A stretch of DNA of 62,709 nt, the filler included, from Stramenopiles sp. TOSAG23-6 (Eukaryota), in NCBI GenBank assembly GCA_900128565.1. It is 17 parts of 17 records of this genome, joined end to end, with 100 filler letters (N's around TTAATTAATTAA, not from the genome) between each part and the next. Parts side by side here need not be neighbours in the genome. Positions count along the whole stretch, not along the records: positions 37,067 to 40,652 come from LT637447.1; 16 more parts are not named here. One strand, written 5' to 3'. The notes under the pieces are model-generated. The model searched no databases. It saw only the letters and a list, made by a program, of their open reading frames with translations, and had not been told where the DNA came from. Both the position numbers and the translations under genes were made by a program. Shown piece after piece: positions 14,213 through 39,126 of this stretch (position 1 is the stretch's first letter; each line of letters starts with the position of its first letter).

Positions 14213-14715
14213 CTACAATAATAACCACCTTGTTGGACTTTTACATGCATCTCTTGCATGTATTGTGAAAAACAAAATTGTAAGAAATTTGTTAGGTACA
14301 AAATTTCGTATGAAAAAAAAATGTAGACAAAAAAATTCATGATGAAAACCTACATGCTTCTCAAAAATTCGAAGCTGTTTTTGCTTTCTTCTTTCTTTTT
14401 TCGCTACTTTTCTTTGTTTTTCATACAAACCAATTCTCGATCGTTTACGACCAAATTTTGAGCTTTCTACATTTCGACAGTGATTTTTCCACCGAAAGAG
14501 TTGATTGCGATACTCATTTACTCTTTTTATCTCATTCAATATATATTGTAAAAAAAAATTTAAATTGTTTTTTGTTAGGTACAAAATTTCGTATGAAAAA
14601 TAAATGAATTTAAATTCATGAAAACATATGATTCTTCTTCATTTAATGAAACTAAATGTGGTACATTCGAAAGCGCCATAGACAAAGCATCTGCATTTGT
14701 GGGTTTATTTGTTGG
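14213..14715 (-). CDS. 3' exons of unknown basic protein (14630-14715, 14354-14540, 14213-14257)
   Basis: Open frames joined by family introns 14541-14629 and 14258-14353; no homology recognised. Confidence 0.45.
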
Positions 14716-14869: not shown

Positions 14870-17050
14870 AATGTCGGTGATAATGGACGGGAAAGTAATT
14901 CTTCTCTGAACTTTAACTCTAAATTATGAGAACTTTCAATAGTTCTGTTTGTATTTTTTATAAACTCTTCCTGTAATTTTAGAAATACATCATCCTCATT
15001 TTTATTTGAATCGTCGACGCTTTCAATTGGTAACAACGGTAAACTTTTTCGAGCAGATTTCCAAGAGTTAATGATATCATTGTATATATCATCCAAATTC
15101 ATTTTTTCAAGAACTGTCTTGCGGGTAATTTTTGATGTTAATCCTAACGACACCTCTTCAAACTTTTCGAATAGTTTTACATCAGGTTTTGTTAGTTTTC
15201 CTGCGATATGAAGTTCAGGGAAATTATTCATATTAAGTTCTACAAATTGGGATATTGTGAATGGTGGAATAAATTTTTTATCATATCCTTTATCCCATTC
15301 GTAATCTTTACCGCTAATTAAATGAGACCCAGGAAATTGAACATGAGGGTAGTGTTGAATTTCATTATACCACCATGAGTATGTCATCATCGGCTGATGT
15401 AGGATTGTCAAGTCTGTTCTAAATCCTTCACAAAGTGTCAAGTAGCGGAGAACTGTCCATTGTAAGTCGTAAGTAGTTATTAGAAGGGAACCCTGAGGAA
15501 TATGCGAAACAAGAGCTTTTCCATATTCTTCAATATAATGAGCATTGCTCATATCTTGCTCTGGGTACCAGTAGTCTGTTTGGTATTTAATCATGTATGC
15601 ACCGACTCCAGCAATGATGAAGAGATAGAAGTACCAAATTTTGATTTTCAAAGATTCCTTCGATATCCATGAAGATAAGCTAAATTTGCACAGAATATAT
15701 TCAATTCTACAAACGTCAAAAAGTACATGAAGCCAAGCTGAAGCTCCGACCCCAAATGTAATGAAGATAATAACATTTGGTTGCATCCAAAATCTCATAT
15801 GAACGCCAAACAACAACCCTTGGGACAGTGGGATATTAGATAATGTATGGAAAATTATCAAGTAAAATGCCCAGGTGAATAATAGAATTTGTCCAATGGA
15901 ATTTTGTGCTTTTGATAATTGTTTTTTTTGGGTGCTTTTAGATTCCCCTTTACGACCCCTGTCACGTAGTAATGTTTTTATTGAAGTGATTCTTTTTGAA
16001 ACTACTTTTTTCCTATTAATATATGGACTATGAGGGATTTCTCCCATACCAAACTGCCACATAACCTTGAAACCTACAAAGATAAAAGGAATACACAATG
16101 GTGAAGGCAACTCTCGTGTAAATAGATCAGAGAAATAATTAAATAACCTCTCCATTAAACCTGCGACCTTTTCATTTGCACGATTTCCAGAATATAACTG
16201 AAGCGTTCCATAATCAGCACGGCGGAAATGATGGAAAAAACCACACGTATTGAGAAAAAATATTTTTTTTGTAAAATTTGTTAGGTACGAAATTTCGTAG
16301 GAAAAAAAATAAATTCGAAATTCATAATGAAAACGTACTTATTGTTCCCGTATTTCCCCAACTAGATGGATTAGGAAAATATTTTTCAGCGACTATTAGA
16401 TATAAGTATGGAGTTAAACCAAGAAGATAGTAACCAGCTAGTCGCCAAAACAAAGCTTTAGTAAGTACCCGTTGATGAAACAAAATCCAAAGAAACCAGG
16501 AAATTAAAGGTATCTGAAACAGTACTGTTGTATGTTGGTTACACATTGCCAAACCACAACAAAATGAACCAAAAATAGCAACATTCGGATCATTTTTCTT
16601 TGAAAATAAACATGTAAGATAGACAATCAAGGCTGCAAAAAAATTATTCATTGCAAACACTTCACTTGATATTGCGTACAACCAGACAAGTGGGGATATT
16701 GAATAGAGAATACCAGCCAGGGCGGCGACGACAATATTACCTCGTCTTGTATCACGGGTTAATAAATCAACACTTAGGAATACAAAAACACCAGCTAATG
16801 AGGCAAAACAACATGACATCATATTTGATCGCCACGCTGGAGTACCACCTAACCATTCCATTCGCTTTGTAGCTATGTTGGATAACAATATAAATAGTGG
16901 ATATCCTGGAGGATGAGCAACACCAAGGCTACATGACTCTGCAACTAATTCACCACTATCACCTCCAGCAACAGTCGGATACACTGTCTGTATGTATATT
17001 GACATTGGTATTGCAAACACAAGTGCAGAAACTGTTAGTAAAAGCATCAT
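14870..17050 (-). CDS. TMEM260: TMEM260/DUF2723 family protein O-mannosyltransferase-like, 3'-truncated; intron 16245-16338 (copy 1 of 4)
   Basis: PTVAGGDSGEL...GVAHPPGYPLF, EVFAMNNFF, NQHT, and WGNTGTISGFFHHFRRADYGTLQL across the intron, plus RFWMQPN. Confidence 0.92.
16245..16338 (-). other. GT-GT intron in TMEM260
   Basis: ata a|GTACGT...TCGTACCTAAC...CTCAATACGT|gt ggt; no AG lies between the branch box and the conserved GFFHHFRRADYG exon. Confidence 0.8.
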
Positions 17051-17286
17051 AGATGCTTTTCCCGGTTTCGCTTGATCTTTCCTTTTTGAAAAGCTAAAGA
17101 GAGAGAGAAGAAGTCGCTGCTGTTGCTTGTTCCTAAAGATTTTTTGAACGATTTTGAATTTTGAGATTTATTTCGTGTTTTTTGAAGTTTGAAACTCGAA
17201 CTGAACTCGCTCCTTCAGCTCTTATTTTATTTTTAAAACTTTTTTTATCTCCTCGATCTTTCGCTTTCGAGTGAGTGAGTGTGACT

Positions 17287-18472
17287 ATGATATCTTTTTC
17301 TATTCTCCTCGGTATAGTTGCAATCGCTACCGTGTGCATTATTTACGATCAATCTGAAAAAAATCAACATCGTCGTTTGGATATATCGTTAAATTCGGAA
17401 TTGCGTCACCGACGTCTAGTTTCTTCAGTAGATGGTGACGCGTATGTATCTATGGATAGTGTTGGCTCTTGGGGAGGAAAGTGTACTTGCCCTAGTGGAG
17501 AAGTATTTGCAGTAGGAGATTTGAAACAATCGTGCAAAAATCTTGCATGCTTTGGCGGAACAACAACAACTCCAAAGTGTGACCCGGATAAGAAAACATC
17601 AGGAAATTGGAGTAAAAAGAGTGTTCACTGTGGTGGATCTCTTCACCTACAATATCTTCAGGATTCAGCTTTAACTATGAAAGATGCAGCGAGTGCAAGC
17701 TCTAGTAGCATCGACGTGATATATGATAATATGGAAGGCGCGGGAGGATATGGTGGAACTTGTCTTTGCCCTTCAGGAAAAGCTTACTTCGCTGGTGATG
17801 CAAATGGCAGCTCTTGCAAAGACATAATGTGCTTTGGTGGTGTTATGACAAGCTGTCAAAAATTTGAAAATACCTTATGGAAGAATAAAGGTGTTGCATG
17901 TAGCGCAATGATCAGTGGTACCGTGGGTGAAGCTGTAAAGAAACACGAATCTGCAAAAAAAATACTTAAAGCAGCACAAGTTGAATTTACAGAGGCAAGT
18001 GGAGGAACTACACAATGTGCTCAAGAAATCAGGGGCTATGACGATTGTATCTGTAAAGGTGGACAAATTAGGATGGGATATTCACATCGTTGGACTCACT
18101 GGATAAGAAGCGATCGAATGACATGCAACTTTGAAAATTGGCGAAAAGATCCTTATCAAGGTAAAGCAAAAATCTGTCAATGTAAAATAGAACCAAAAGA
18201 TGAAAAAACTATAGAAAACGCGAAGGATGCTTTAGTTACAGCAACGACAAATGAAAATGACACGAAAATTGTAAGAGAAAAAATGGTAAAAGATGATAAA
18301 GAGAAAAAGTCGCTGTTTAAGATAGCACTGGAAACTTCACCTAATAATTATAAAGAAGCTTACAATGATTTGTTGGCAGCTAAAGCAATAGCTGATGCAA
18401 AAGCTGAAGCAGATGCAAAAGCAAAAGCTGAAGCAGATGCTAAAGCAAAAGCTGAAGCAGATGCTAAAGCAA
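17287..18472 (+). CDS. Secreted or anchored Cys-rich protein with AKAEADAK repeats, 3'-truncated (copy 1 of 4)
   Basis: N-terminal hydrophobic segment, two GGxCxCPSG...GD...SC..CFGG modules, a CxCxGG...DPYQGKAKICQC module, then Ala/Lys/Glu repeats running into the gap. Divergent from TMEM260. Confidence 0.75.
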
Positions 18473-29681: not shown

Positions 29682-32600
29682 GATTCTTTTCATGATCGTT
29701 GGGCTAATCCTGATTACAGAGAAAATGAGATTAGACGGATTACACGAAATCGTGAAGTCCCCGCTTGGAGTGATACAAATGACTATACCACAAATGAAAA
29801 TAATACCATACAAAATTCAAACTTTGACAATTTATTTGGTGATGGTTTTCTTGATGATTTGTCTATAGATGGAGATAATGAGAGTAATGATGAATATAGT
29901 GATTATAGTGACGAAAACGAGTCTAGCCCTAACTCTAATGAAGAAACCACAAAAGATACAGAAGAAACAAAAGAAACAAAAGAAACAAAAGAAACAAAAG
30001 AAACAAAAGAAGAAGAAAGTGAAAATGAAGAAAACGTAGATTCAAATACATACGATTCGCTTTCTATTGACGAATTATTAGCTACGAAATTTGGTACGGA
30101 TTCAATTTCTAATGTTCAAAGTACATCTTCTCTCAAATTAGATACAAAGATACAAAAATTGAATAAAAAAACACAAAAATCGAATGTAAAAAACAGTTGG
30201 GCAATTCATGAGACGTTGAAAGATATTTCAAATTTCTATGAACTTATACCGAATTTAGCGTACAAACCCCCGTTTGAAATGGATAGATTTCAAAAACAAG
30301 CAGTTATTCATTTAGAACGTGGCGAATGCGTGTTTATTGCTGCGCATACTTCTGCTGGTAAAACTTTGATTGCTGAGTATGCGCTCTCTTTATCACGTCA
30401 GCATTTGTCGCGTGCTGTGTATACTTCACCCATTAAAGCATTGTCTAATCAAAAGTATAGAGATTTCAATGAAAAGTTTGGTGACATTGGACTTATTACA
30501 GGTGATGTATCAATCAATCCTACTGCTTCTTGTCTTATTATGACTACTGAGATTTTACGATCTATGTTGTATCGTGGTGCTGATATCATTAGAGATATCG
30601 AATGGGTAATTTTTGATGAGGTTCATTATGTAAATGATAGCGACCGTGGAGTCGTTTGGGAGGAAGTCATAATCATGCTTCCAGATCACGTTAATTTAAT
30701 ATTTCTATCTGCAACGACGCCAAATCATTTTGAATTTGCTGATTGGGTTGGAAGAACAAAATTAAAGAATGTGTATGTAATTTCAACCACTCAAAGACCT
30801 GTACCATTAGAGCATTATTTGTTTGTTGGTGGGGGGAGTGGTAAGTCTTCTACTGGTAAAAATAAGTGTAAATTGCATAAAGTTATGAATTCTAAAAATG
30901 GATTTTTATTACCTGGGTACAAAGCTGCTGCTGCCGTGTTAAAAGGAGAAGAAAAAAAAGCAGAAGTAAAAGCTTTAGCAAAGGGAAGAGGTAGAGGTAG
31001 AGGTAGACAGAGCCATCGTGGAAAGCATCGCTCGGCTGGAGGTAAATCAGAATCTTTTTTATTTCGTGATTTTGTACAATTATTAGAAAAAGATTCGTTG
31101 TTACCTTGTGTTATTTTTACATTTTCAAAAAAACGTTGTGAGGTTTGTGCATATGGAATGGGTACAATTGATTTGAATTCAAAAAATGAAAAGAGTAAAA
31201 TCAAAGTATTTATGAACAAAGCTCTGAGTCGCCTTCAAGGTTCAGATCGTGATTTGTACGTTTTAGTTTTTTTCAATTTTTATCTACATTTGTTTTCGTA
31301 CGAAATTTCGTACCTAACGATTTTTTTTTTTTTAAAGAAAATATTTTTCCACAATATATGCCTCAAGTAATTCGACTTTCTGAATTATTACAAAGAGGTA
31401 TTGGTATTCACCATGGTGGATTGTTACCTATCTTAAAAGAATGTGTGGAAATGTTATTTAGTTCTGGTCTCGTTAAAATATTGTTTGCGACAGAAACATT
31501 TGCCATGGGAGTCAATATGCCTGCGCGTGCAGTTGCTTTCAATGGTACTCGCAAACATGATGGAAATGGATTTCGTGAATTATTACCTGGTGAATATACA
31601 CAAATGGCCGGTAGGGCTGGGCGTCGGGGACTAGATAATGTTGGTACTGTTATAATACTTGCTTGGAATGAAATTCCAGCTGTAGCTCCTCTTCACTTAA
31701 TGCTGAAAGGATCAGCTACAAAATTAGAATCAAAATTTCGATTAACGTATACAATGATACTAAATTTGTTGCGTGTCGATGAAATGTCAGTAGAAGATAT
31801 GATGAAACGATCATTTTCGGAGGTGAAAACTCAAAAGGTTTTAGGATGCCGAAATTTACCTTCTGTTCTTTTTGCTGTAGAAAATAAAATCGAACAAACG
31901 TCGTCGAAATTAGAAATTGAAATGAAAAAAGTGTGTGGCATGTGTATACCCGGTACACTTACAAATAAAGATATTTTAGAATATTTGGATATGCAGCAAG
32001 ATATCGAAAATCTGTCTATTGATATCATGGAAGCTCTCTCATCTGATTCAAGTGCAAAGAAGGCATTTTGTCGCGGGCGTGTTTTTCTCTTTCGTAAAAA
32101 TATTTTTCCATTTTTGAGTTGTGGTGAAACGACAGTCCATCGAATTGGAATAATTTTAGGTACAAAAAAAAATTGTACATTATTAAGTGTAATTGTTTTG
32201 TGTCCTTTGGAATTTAATGCCACGTATCATCAAAATGAAAATACGAATCAAATACCATTAGAATTCAATGCCACGTGTCATCAAACTTCATCTGGGAGAA
32301 TTTTATTAGAAGTAGATATTAGAATTCGTTCTGTGTTTTACCTTTGTAAAAAGAAATTATCATTAGGTCAAAAGACACTCGGAAAGAAGAATGAAAAAGA
32401 TATATCTGGTATGTCTCAGTTTTTAAGTGCATTTGATACAAAACAAATACCAATCAAGTACGTTTTTAAACATTAAATATTTCCAAAAAAAAATTCGTTA
32501 GGTACAAAATTTCGTACGAAACATTTTGTACCTAAAACTTTTTTTTTTCAAAACAGTTTGTACCTAACAAATTATTTGAAGAAAATATTTTTTACAAAAC

Positions 32601-33224
32601 ATGCATCGCTCTGTTGAGGGGGATGATTTACAAGAATTATCTTTAACCAAAGATCTTAAAGTAAAAGCAATAGATTTAGTTCAAGCATCAAGACGAGTCA
32701 ATCAAATGAATGAACAAATAAGTTTGTCATTTTGTTCCACTTTGCCAACATCTTTGATTGATCGCATGAAAAAGTTAGCGACAGTACAATCAAAACTCCA
32801 ACAAAAAGTAACAAAATTAAAGCAAATTTTGTCAAACGAAAATTTATTTCTTTTTGCAGATTTTCAAAAACGACTTTCGGTGCTGAAAAAACTTGGTTAT
32901 ATTGATGCTAAGGAAAACTCAATGAAACTTAAAGGTAGAGTTGCCTCAGAAGTAAATACTATGGACGAACTTATTCTTACTGAATTAGTATTTGAGAATA
33001 TTTTAGGTGAATTGGATCCTGCTGAAGCTGCTGCATTATTGAGTGCTGGTGTTTTCCAGCGAAAGACAAATGATGAACCAGTATTACCCGCTAGCTTATT
33101 AGATGCAAAGAATAAAGCATTATCGATTGCTCATGGTCTTGGTGTAGCTCAAATGGAGGCTGGCTTAGATATTTTACCTGATGATTATGCTCGTAATTCA
33201 CTAAAATTTGGATTGATGGAAGTT
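29682..33224 (+). CDS. SKI2: Ski2-like DExH RNA helicase, partial; exons 29682-31255, 31360-32457, 32603-33224
   Basis: AHTSAGKT, YTSPIKALSNQKY, FDEVHY, LSAT, HHGGLLPILKE, ATETFAMGVNMPAR, QMAGRAGRRGLD, KGRVA, FGLMEV. GT-AT introns restore DRDLPQV. Confidence 0.95.
31256..31359 (+). other. Representative non-canonical GT-AT family intron (SKI2 intron)
   Basis: GTACGT...TTCGTACGAAATTTCGTACCTAAC...AAATATTTTTCCACAATATAT; removal gives gat tt|g cct caa = D-L-P-Q. Confidence 0.85.
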
Positions 33225-36112: not shown

Positions 36113-36910
36113 TTATAATTTAGGTAATGATTTTTGTATATGTTTCATCCGATTTTGTTTTCTTCTGATTTGACGTCTTTTATAAATATTTTCATCTTCT
36201 TTTGTTTTCGTACCAAATTTTGTACTTAACAAATTTCGAATATTTTCATTTGAAATTATATTTTTTTCTTGTTTTTTTGTAGCATTTGGCAATTTTGAAA
36301 TTGATTTTTTTTTATTAGAAAATGTTGTACCTAATGAATTTCTAATTTGTTGAGTGTCTTTTATATTTCTATAGACTGGAGCTGAGTGAATTGATCTTCT
36401 TTCTGTTTCATTATTTTTTGTCACAAACCTGTTGGAATAAATTATTGATGATGATGACGTCACATTTGGTAAAGTGAAACGTTCATTTTTTTTTTGTTTC
36501 TGTGGTTTCTGTGTATAACTTGTTGAAGATCTATGATTTAACCCTAACCCTAGTAGCCCCTTTTTCATATCAAATTTTGGAGGTAAAAAATGTCGATTTT
36601 GTTGAGCATTTTTTAACCCTAACCCTAACCCAGGTAAAATTGTAGTACATGTTTTTGTATCCGTCGAAGATCTATTAGGGTTAGGGTTTAAATCTCTACC
36701 AAATTTTGTACCTAAAGAATGTCCAACAAAAGATTTTTTTTTACTTTCATTATTGTCATGAAAATCTCTACCAAATTTCGTACCTAAAGAATTTTTTTTA
36801 TACTTTTGTACCTTTTTTAATTTTAATGGTCTCAATCTGACATGGCTAGAGTTAGTAGGGTTAGGGTTATATTGATCATCAATTGTTGTAGTGACAAATT
36901 GTTGCTCAAT
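36113..36910 (-). CDS. 3' part of Lys/Asn-rich low-complexity protein with repeated SLGTKFG and NPNP/GLGL motifs
   Basis: 240+ aa open frame next to a contig end; no homology recognised. Confidence 0.45.
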   Translation of the reverse strand: MEQQFVTTTIDDQYNPNPTNSSHVRLRPLKLKKVQKYKKNSLGTKFGRDFHDNNESKKKSFVGHSLGTKFGRDLNPNPNRSSTDTKTCTTILPGLGLGLKNAQQNRHFLPPKFDMKKGLLGLGLNHRSSTSYTQKPQKQKKNERFTLPNVTSSSSIIYSNRFVTKNNETERRSIHSAPVYRNIKDTQQIRNSLGTTFSNKKKSISKLPNATKKQEKNIISNENIRNLLSTKFGTKTKEDENIYKRRQIRRKQNRMKHIQKSLPKL

Positions 36911-37066: not shown

Positions 37067-39126
37067 TAGGTTGTGAGTCACTTCCACCACCGTCAGCACT
37101 AGGTTGTGAGTCACTTCCACCGCCACCCCTATCAATACCATGCAATGCAAAAGTAGAGGGATGGTGAATCGCATCTAGTCCAAAGAATCCTCGTTTCCCT
37201 CGTCGTGGCTTTGTTCTTTTGCCTCTATACCCCCTCTGTCCAGAAATTCCGTTCAAAGCAAAATTCGACGGGCTATGTATAGCATCCAATCCAAAGAAGT
37301 GTCGCGCTTTTCTCGCTGCTTTCCCATTTCGTCCTCTTTTCCCAGGACGCCCACGTGCACCATCTCTTCCATCACGTCCTGGTTTCCCTTGAATACCTCG
37401 AGTCCCAGCAACACCGCTTTTTCCATCACGTCCTGGTTTCCCTTGAATTCCTCGCGCCCCATCAACACCACTTTTCCCATCACGACCAGGTTTCCCTTGA
37501 ATACCTCGAGCTCCTGTTTCACCCCGTACACCAGAAGGTCCTTGTTCTCCACGTGGTCCCTGTTTGCCTTGCATACCAGCAGGGCCTCTCTTACCAACTA
37601 TTGTTTGTCCTGGAGGACCGGTTGGTCCTACTACAGTATCTCCCTTTGCTCCACGTCGACCACGACGTCCACGACTCCCGCGACCTCCAACAGGCCCCAC
37701 AGGACCTGTAGCACCTCTCGGACCTGTCGCTCCAGCTCGGCCTACATGTCCGTCTTCGCCATTCAAACCGTCACGACCATCACGACCTCGAGCACCTGTT
37801 TCACCTTTTACACCAGCAGTTCCTTGTTCTCCACGCTCACCTTTCTCACCTTTCAAACCTTGAAGGCCCCTATCACCTTTAAATCCCATTTGACCTTGAA
37901 CACCGCGAGGTCTTATAATGTTTGTCTGATAATATTCAATTGTTTTTGTTAGGTAAAACATTTTCATAGTAAAAAAGAAACAAATTGAAATGTTTAAAAT
38001 GTTTGAAATTTCATATATATATTTGTGTCGTCAATAATTTGGAAAGAAAAAGAAAAAGTGAATGCAGTAACATATCTTGAGGTCCACGGGCACCAGTTTC
38101 CCCTGGACTACCATCCATTCCTGGCGCTCCTCTCTGACCCTCTTTGCCATCAGCTCCAGTTAGTCCTCTACTTCCTGTAGCTCCAGTAGCTCCATCGGCG
38201 CCTCTTTTTCCGATTCCAACATCACCTTTTTCGCCTTTGTCCCCTTTTTCGCCTTTAGCACCATCTTTTCCATCTTTTCCTTTCAATGGATTGATTATCT
38301 CAGGTAAAAAGCAGCATGTCGAGTCTTTGGCTAATTCCCAACCACCAATATTTGGACATTCATTCGGAAATTCTTGACAACGTTCGACCTCGCCGACTAA
38401 GCTTCCACCGCTATTAAATACTTTAGCGCAGCACGCAACACCTCGAACAATCTGAAGATTATCCTCACAACAGTCTTCATTTACCTCTGTCCATCCATTT
38501 TGACAACCAGTAGCAAAAAATTTATATAGAGAATCTGGACTTTTGTTATCATACCTGCAGCACGCCGGACCATGCTTTTCTTCTATTACTCTTTCACAGC
38601 ATTCAGGGTCTACAGGAAACCATGTATCTGGACACCCATTATCAAATTCAGCATCAAAGATTTTGCATTTTTTCTCCGTATCATCTATTCCTCCTCCACA
38701 GCATGTTTTCCCACCTTTTGGAGGTGTAGGAATACTAGATGGATCTGAAGCAAGCGAAGGTGCCGGAGTAATTGTTTCAATATCTTTATCAACAACTTTT
38801 TTTGTACCGTCGGGGCAACATTTTCCATTGATAGATTTACAATTACTCTTTCTAGGAGTTGCACAAGCTTCACATGTCCACGGTTCACATTGCATGTTAG
38901 GTGGATGTGGAGGAAGACGTCCTAATAATTTAGATATCTGAGGATCACTATAGTTGATATCATCGATTGAATTTGATATTGGCGGTCGATTGAATCCATA
39001 AAAAGGAAATGGCAATTGATTGTATGACATACCATTTGCTGCTTCTAGTACATGGACTTTGTATAAAATAATCAATACAAAGATAGACATTTCATGTATA
39101 AAATGAGACATTGAGGCTACATTCAC
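37067..39126 (-). CDS. Secreted collagen-like protein: signal peptide, Cys-Cys-rich repeats, long Gly-X-Y domain; exons 38076-~39111 and 37067-37912
   Basis: More than 70 Gly-X-Y triplets and an N-terminal hydrophobic segment ending VLEA. The Gly register is restored by intron 37913-38075. Confidence 0.85.
37913..38075 (-). other. AT-AA intron in the collagen-like gene
   Basis: caa g|ATATGT...TTTACCTAAC...CATTATAA|ga cct is the local junction that keeps Gly-X-Y. Confidence 0.75.

Follow-up and report, generated by a model that had tools for sequence, protein, structure and literature searches.

How does a collagen repeat keep its register across an A+T-rich piece that begins with AT and ends with AA, and which bases are in fact cut when that piece is removed? 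This question is raised by a collagen-like gene on the minus strand of a stretch of 62,709 nucleotides from Stramenopiles sp. TOSAG23-6 (assembly GCA_900128565.1), here called the window, in the piece at 37067-40652 (LT637447.1). The gap in the gene (37913..38075, minus strand) is 163 nt long, 79% A+T, with ATATGT at one end (38075-38070) and CATTATAA at the other (37920-37913), and a previous sequence-only reading had taken it as an AT-AA intron pinned by the Gly-X-Y register. We find that the gap looks like a member of the known transposon-derived non-canonical introns, and that 38075/37913 are clearly better as the ends with which it arose than the pair formed by a GT at 38071 and an ACAT end. 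Judged from the sequence, AT-AA splicing that joins 38076 to 37912 may also be what happens today, a tentative reading that falls a little short of an even chance.

The gene is read in two blocks. Exon 1 (38076..39111, minus strand, ATG at 39111) opens in the manner of a signal peptide, goes on with about 250 Cys-rich residues and 22 Gly-X-Y triplets, and closes with ...GAR GPQ and the first base (G) of a Gly codon; on the minus strand, ...ggt gcc cgt gga cct caa g ends at 38076. Past the A+T-rich gap, Gly-X-Y resumes in another frame. Exon 2 (37067..37912, minus strand) opens from 37912 with ga cct cgc ggt gtt caa, completing the Gly and continuing with Pro-Arg, and carries 61 further Gly-X-Y triplets with two 2-residue breaks, followed by a repeated FFGLDAIH motif; it is open for 281 codons until the contig ends at 37067. 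Both blocks match Pfam Collagen (PF01391) above the cut-off of 27.2 bits, exon 1 with 36.9 bits (E 3.1e-09) and exon 2 with 101.5 bits (E 2.1e-29), and the protein holds 83 Gly-X-Y triplets in four runs. The A+T fraction is 0.791 in the gap versus 0.486 and 0.473 in the flanking collagen code, and ATATGT at 38070..38075 marks the largest A+T step among sites of the form NT[AG]N[GA]T. Read without splicing, the frame of exon 1 meets a TGA stop 23 codons into the gap, giving a protein of 368 residues.

An independent DNA contig from another study (run X3, record 8; 1663 bases, covering 37092-38754) differs from the window at 7 positions, without gaps, and shows no difference at 38066-38076 or at 37911-37920. 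As an independent assembly has the same bases at both ends of the gap, these ends are not a sequencing error; the raw-read check proposed earlier for 38075 and 37913 is in this way answered in part, by a contig rather than by reads. The X3 contigs depart from the window at seven exonic positions, each of them a synonymous change of a third codon position (37476, 37866 and 37884 in exon 2; 38224, 38299, 38572 and 39070 in exon 1), and an Arg to Ser change at 37349 was seen in one RNA-library contig only. Because the exonic differences are synonymous, both blocks are translated and under purifying selection in the frames read here, and a piece of length 1 mod 3 must be removed between them. An in-frame splice between the two collagen blocks must therefore take place.

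Joining 38076 to 37912 reads GAR GPQ GPR GVQ, and the earlier description of this joint and of both gap ends is correct to the base. Its two register tests were also reproduced: the nearby AG (TA..AG, 38075/37911) puts Glu at the Gly position (...GPQEPRG), and a shift by 2 nt (GA..TA, 38077/37913) puts Arg there (...GPQRPRG). The comparison was incomplete, in that it covered only shifts of a 163-nt piece and missed a GT four bases downstream of the first donor (GTTACT, 38066..38071, minus strand, with TAT before it), which arises from +5/+6 of the old donor. We tried 4500 donor/acceptor pairs around the gap: 1470 keep the frame without a stop, and 75 of them leave Gly-X-Y unbroken. Among these unbroken junctions, 74 delete 3 to 15 Gly-X-Y codons (introns of 172-208 nt), and only that joining 38076 to 37912, with its 163 nt, deletes none. 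A Gly codon at one fixed phase-1 joint requires two particular G's and would arise by chance about 1 time in 16 by our own arithmetic. From the GT at 38071, three acceptors within 37912..37920 are in frame, CAT at 37918, TAT at 37915 and the AG at 37912; they join 38072 to 37917, 37914 and 37911 and replace GPR by DIIRPR, DIRPR and DIPR, respectively. The last of them makes 38071...37912 a formal GT-AG pair of 160 nt, with a donor (GTTACT) and an acceptor (AAG) neither of which is seen in the intron family described below.

One homogeneous introner-like family fills the window, with the plan GTAYGT ... ACCTAAC ... YAT, and most of its copies end in AT, not AG. Copies start with GTATGT or GTACGT, continue with a T-rich stretch (often ttcaatttcgaattt), the block cgtacgaaattttgtACCTAAC and a T-run, and end with gaaatatttttccaaaatACAT (ccaaaatACAT), the two ends being inverted-repeat-like; examples lie at 31256-31359 (plus strand), 58029-57908 and 12811-12711 (minus strand) and 40052-40144 (plus strand). 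We called frame-pinned those copies with exactly one open frame on each side (n=14, selected by their GT start). In 13 of these 14, against one in three by chance, the terminal family triplet is in frame with the GT, ending in AT nine times, in AG three times and in GT once (own binomial about 6e-6, from a lenient test, since more than one triplet would be acceptable in three copies). The misfit copy (55811-55680, minus strand) has its expected AG/AT end out of frame and in-frame ends at ..ACATA or ..CAAC, possibly owing to an indel error in a contig with scattered N's. The frames thus bear out the earlier view that the last intron base is relaxed in the family, with T commoner than G. In the intron at 31256, which lies in a helicase gene, the in-frame end is ...CACAATATAT and gives DRDL/PQV, a motif presumably conserved in Mtr4-type helicases.

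In 13 of 22 tabulated copies, exon and intron end in the same two bases, a count that 95 of 10,000 shuffles reach (shuffled mean 9.1); the matches are mostly AT/AT, with AG/AG at 3293 and GT/GT at 40052, while the joint of 38076 with 37912 in the collagen copy has AG and AA, equal in one of two bases. Contig depths summed over the core of the element come to about 46,000 for a seawater DNA run and to about 9,000 for RNA libraries versus about 10 for the gene, values that are not copy numbers. Telomere-like TTAGGG/CCCTAA units, 2-4 at a time, stand in or beside several copies and also between genes (~3520-3545 and 49430-49600, plus strand; 56720-56700, minus strand; 36540-36700). In one intron (32458-32602, plus strand), two copies of the family core face each other as an inverted repeat (gttaggtac...cgtacg...gtacctaa) and form a long palindrome centred on CGTACG.

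The collagen gap shares this plan. In an alignment with 18 copies, it has ttttACCTAACaaaa at 37954 with T-rich flanks, ATATGTT at the 5' end versus GTATGTT or GTACGTT in the other copies, and GAATATT..ACAT at the 3' end; the aligner MAFFT places ATATGT (38070..38075) on the family's GTAYGT, with G to A at +1. The motif listing and the alignment both put a branch-point-like ACCTAAC (tttt-ACCTAAC-aaaa) at 37948..37954 on the minus strand, its second-to-last A lying 36 nt from 37913. The 3' part, GAATATTATCAGACAAACAT, resembles GAAATATTTTTCCAAAATACAT in a manual alignment (MAFFT placed it poorly), and the end proposed earlier, ACATTATAA, agrees by eye at 7 of 9 bases with ACAATATAT, the in-frame end of the helicase intron at 31256. 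The copy has clearly diverged further than the others, and its 163 nt exceed the length of most of the 22 tabulated ones (88-182 nt). A second family copy that starts with ATATGT, not GTATGT, lies at 14629-14541 (minus strand); it is ambiguous, since AT..AT (EEES/LNEIK) and GT..AT (EEESY/ILNEIK) are both in frame. A hairpin joining the intron ends was considered and rejected: the fold of 37903-38085 has a minimum free energy of -11 kcal/mol (z +1.84), which 199 of 200 shuffles equal or better.

Families of this kind are known elsewhere. Spliceosomal introns derived from introners or miniature inverted-repeat transposable elements (MITEs) occur in Micromonas, Aureococcus, Amoebophrya and Polarella according to excerpts of two papers (PMC11282704, PMC7789003), and in the first of these the duplicated target supplies the 3' site while the other splice site is carried by the element. 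Like them, the window family consists of near-identical short introns in unrelated genes, with inverted-repeat-like ends and the direct repeat of exon end and intron end in 13 of 22 copies. Unlike in these introners, the duplicated dinucleotide is mostly AT, so that most copies end in AT; the collagen copy, moreover, has lost both terminal consensus bases. A closer match is found in fritillariid larvaceans, which are marine plankton, where AT is the commonest 3' intron end (44% in F. pellucida, 34% in F. borealis), U2 introns have a U-rich polypyrimidine tract and YAY as their last three bases and often also before the 5' site, A at +1 is common (AG/AC, AG/AT), an introner-transposon origin is ascribed to the introns and the minor spliceosome has been lost (PMC13326754, in part). 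The window family fits this description of non-canonical U2 introns well, except that it keeps a strict GTAYGT donor. The same paper treats the first-last nucleotide pairs G-G and A-C as isosteric and describes U2-type AT-AC introns (PMC13326754); in the collagen copy, as in these, the last base has changed along with the G to A at +1, whereas the partner is A, not C.

For the origin of the intron, the evidence clearly favours 38075/37913. The GT at 38071, the AT that precedes it and the ACAT end follow automatically from a family consensus GTAT/GT...ACAT. If the element had instead entered between 38071 and an ACAT end, chance would have to explain both the perfect Gly codon at the joint and the ATAT that precedes the GT, nine bases (ATAT and TATAA) that are all A or T would have been coding within a code of 47-49% A+T, and the insertion would have hit a break in Gly-X-Y, which is unlikely a priori, as such breaks make up only a few per cent of the domain. 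We propose that a short transposon-like copy of the family (GTAYGT ... cgtacgaaattttgtACCTAAC ... gaaatatttttccaaaatACAT) would have inserted into the Gly codon G/GA of an uninterrupted collagen repeat, and that the inserted unit, 38075-37913, would have become a spliceosomal intron. Divergence after insertion would have turned both terminal bases into A, +1 having formerly been G and -1 formerly G or T. A major-type spliceosome that already accepts T or G as the last base would still cut at both original ends (AT...AA), and the sites would be set by internal signals, namely TATGT at +2 to +6 with its U1/U6 pairing, the UACCUAAC branch block and the distance to the exon, rather than by the terminal dinucleotides.

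Recognition of a donor is based on pairing of U1 and U6 at the 5' site. The junction of 38076 with 37912 is favoured for the present day because TATGT (+2 to +6) and the exon end AG keep this pairing, which GTTACT does not; reportedly, yeast G1-to-A mutants are still cut at the mutant site. It is also favoured because a route from an unbroken repeat to the GT at +5 would pass through a non-canonically spliced stage anyway. We infer from these signals that 38076 and 37912 may be joined now, and a major-type spliceosome would be the one that acts. That it removes an intron whose first and last base are both A, the terminal pair having co-varied from G-U or G-G to A-A, is only slightly less probable than the junction itself.

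Several observations weigh against this reading of the present junction. A final A is seen in none of the 14 frame-pinned copies, and each of them has a GT start, which was their selection criterion; read by eye, as T-rich runs and 2-nt offsets mislead automatic calling of 5' ends, the 34 copies whose 5' end is visible comprise 32 that start with GT and two with AT, the two being the collagen copy and that at 14629. In both of these ATATGT copies, the GT at +5 is in frame with a family-type YAT end. A GT start with a YAT, YAG or CGT end, usual in the family, is absent at the joint of 38076 with 37912 (AT, TAA) and present only from the GT at 38071 to CAT or TAT. The best gapless 3' homologue, by MAFFT and by manual alignment, is the ACAT at 37918, not 37913, and as the homologous ends 38075 and 37918 enclose 158 nt, which is out of frame, at least one working end must lie elsewhere. 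The YAY feature described for fritillariids is missing from the AT-AA junction, which has a TAA end and AAG before the donor, whereas the junctions from 38071 do show it, as TAT precedes their donor and the intron closes with CAT or TAT (PMC13326754). The protein itself has three natural register breaks, one in exon 1 (GDV-GI-GKR) and two in exon 2 (GDT-VV-GPT, GQT-IV-GKR), so this collagen-like protein does not require Gly at each third position.

We compared contigs of three RNA-library runs and one DNA run with 37067-40652 (X12-X14 and X16 were left out), and among the contigs of the three RNA-library runs none joins across the gap. Contig X6 record 18 (37988-38315) continues unspliced from exon 1 through the donor and 88 nt into the gap, and, judging by bin depths, the acceptor may be crossed by a further contig, from X7. 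Only two joints are listed, 37975 to 40068 and 38661 to 40080, both from X3 with short sides of 28 and 21, and both lead into the repeated intron element, not across the gap. The RNA-library depths are only 2-7, and these libraries may include DNA or pre-mRNA; the contigs support no junction and give a weak hint of poor splicing. The RNA check across the junction that the sequence-only reading had called for, run here on contigs, has thus shown no spliced joint. That reading had observed something real and was right about the position of the element; its words "pinned" and "obligatory Gly" were too strong for a protein with three breaks of its own, and it overstated how far the working splice sites are fixed. 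Its claim that the +1 base is also relaxed stands in so far as ATATGT aligns with GTAYGT and shows the place of insertion, which is no proof that the A at +1 is used today.

A serious though unlikely alternative starts from the same insertion and lets the G to A change at +1 shift splicing to the GT at 38071 (TAT/GTTACT), with CAT, TAT or AAG as the 3' end, so that the protein would carry a short Gly-less break (GPQ-DIIRPR-GVQ, GPQ-DIRPR-GVQ or GPQ-DIPR-GVQ). All three junctions are in frame and stop-free, with CAT the triplet phase is kept with 8 residues between glycines, and the protein has its three breaks already. A GT start, YAY before the donor and a YAT end are typical of most family copies, exon and intron both end in AT, a match of the sort found in 13 of 22 copies, no 3' homologue is better than ACAT, the copy at 14629 offers the same option (TAT/GTTTTC...CAATAT), and the A at 37913 is exactly the change that shifts the AG one base downstream. 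These family-like features are mostly automatic, however, given the consensus, and only the in-frame coincidence (1 in 3) is extra; GTTACT is moreover the poorest donor, as the 22 tabulated copies invariably carry A at +3 and never A at +4 or C at +5. The coding use of nine A/T bases, the chance Gly codon at the AT..AA joint and the non-canonical stage on the way from an unbroken repeat, set out above, count against it as well. Retention of the gap, or its rare removal, with exon 1 ending at the TGA and the downstream collagen dead or expressed alone, would agree with an X6 contig colinear with the DNA across the donor, an X7 contig suggested across the acceptor, the lack of any joint and the mutation of both terminal bases. 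It is nonetheless improbable, as the three differences in exon 2 are all synonymous in the Gly-X-Y frame, 281 codons are open there, and shallow libraries that may hold DNA or pre-mRNA can account for unspliced contigs.

Other ends have to be weighed with the AT-AA junction too. A GA-AG intron at 38076-37926 (GATATG...TATCAG, 151 nt), which uses the first YAG past the branch block and gives GPQ-TNIIRPR-GVQ, is in frame (38077/37925), has its CAG 22 nt after ACCTAAC and belongs to a class, GV/AG, known in tunicates (PMC13326754, in part). No family copy in the window starts with GA, though, and the junction breaks the Gly register (9 residues between glycines) and makes 14 intron-like bases coding, so that we regard it as very improbable. 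Slightly less credible still is a deeper canonical GT-AG intron from GTGCCC at 38093 to TTCAAG at 37895 (199 nt), whose joint 38094/37894 is among the unbroken Gly-X-Y junctions (GET GQM): it would put 36 bases of perfect Gly-X-Y code (ARGPQ, PRGVQ) inside the intron, and any GGT codon gives a G/GT site by chance. Introns of the minor spliceosome (U12-type) have the donor consensus /ATATCCTT and the branch consensus TCCTTAAC, placed about 10-20 nt from the 3' end. The collagen gap has ATATGTTA as its donor, a 5/8 match to this consensus, with no ATATCC present, as the earlier reading had stressed; its ACCTAAC is somewhat like the U12 branch consensus (TACCTAAC matches 6 of 8 positions), with the branch A at 37949 lying 36 nt from 37913, and the same ACCTAAC block is shared by all GT-start copies of the family. 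Among U12 introns, AT-AA is indeed known as a rare subtype, of which Table 2 of PMC1557818 gives 8 cases, and it has the same terminal dinucleotides, whereas the donor and the branch spacing of the collagen intron do not fit it, and a U12-type intron is hardly to be believed here. An Rfam scan of the 62.7-kb window gave 0 matches, so no U11, U12, U4atac or U6atac, on which 62 kb says little. Least probable of all, with next to no weight, is a sequencing or assembly error at one or both ends, suggested by a fragmentary assembly with scattered N's and contradicted by the independent contig, which agrees without an indel across 37092-38754. Taken jointly, the GA-AG, deeper GT-AG, U12-type and error explanations are still improbable, about on a level with retention or barely above it.

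The Gly-X-Y repeat acts at this locus as a built-in ruler that gives the base-exact entry point of a transposon-like intron without RNA. Were AT-AA splicing true, it would be a natural non-U12 intron without both terminal G's and would bear on how much variation of the first-last pair the catalytic centre allows; if the A-A pair is true, the first-last nucleotide rule would extend past G-G and A-C, and neither terminal G would be needed in the plankton genome studied. Were the GT at +5 used instead, a decayed donor would have been rescued by a small coding insertion. Gene finders that allow GT-AG only would call a wrong protein here (GPQ-DI-PRG) and miss most GT-AT introns of the family.

Inside exon 1, at 39032-38874 on the minus strand, GTATGT (39032), ACCTAAC (38902) and an ACAT end (38874) stand in the order and spacing of the family. 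They enclose 159 nt (53 codons, in frame) that are open and not A+T-rich, and no RNA contig covers them; by its sequence, this set of motifs could be chance or an optional intron. An HMMER search with exon 1 gave 3341 matches, and among the 150 listed every best stretch lies within residues 233-345, the collagen part; a scan of metagenome DNA with exon 1 found at least 80 loci, all matching only residues 213-345, and was not used. Word-index searches with residues 20-290, at near and longer lengths, gave no relatives. Past the collagen repeats, at 37067-37310 (minus strand), exon 2 has two copies of FFGLDAIH(S/H)PS(N/T)FAL(N/H)G, each after a basic run (KARH, RRGKRG), and GGGSDSQP repeats follow downstream at the contig end; no family was found for these motif copies or repeats. 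The neighbouring open reading frame (39313-40051, plus strand; 265 codons, without a Pfam match) ends at a family intron whose donor is at 40052.

The window is made of about 17 parts of about 3.6 kb, falling in size from 3619 to 3568 bases and joined by linkers of the form N44-TTAATTAATTAA-N44 (3621-3720, 7340-7439 and about every 3.7 kb thereafter). Its sequence is also present in seawater DNA and RNA runs of several studies. Its other genes include a protein with TNFR_c6 six times, a TMEM260-like protein and, at the intron discussed above, the Ski2/MTR4-like helicase. The pattern of open reading frames in the part at 14870-18472 recurs four times in the window, and 51800-55370 is near-identical to 55471-59041, single N's included.

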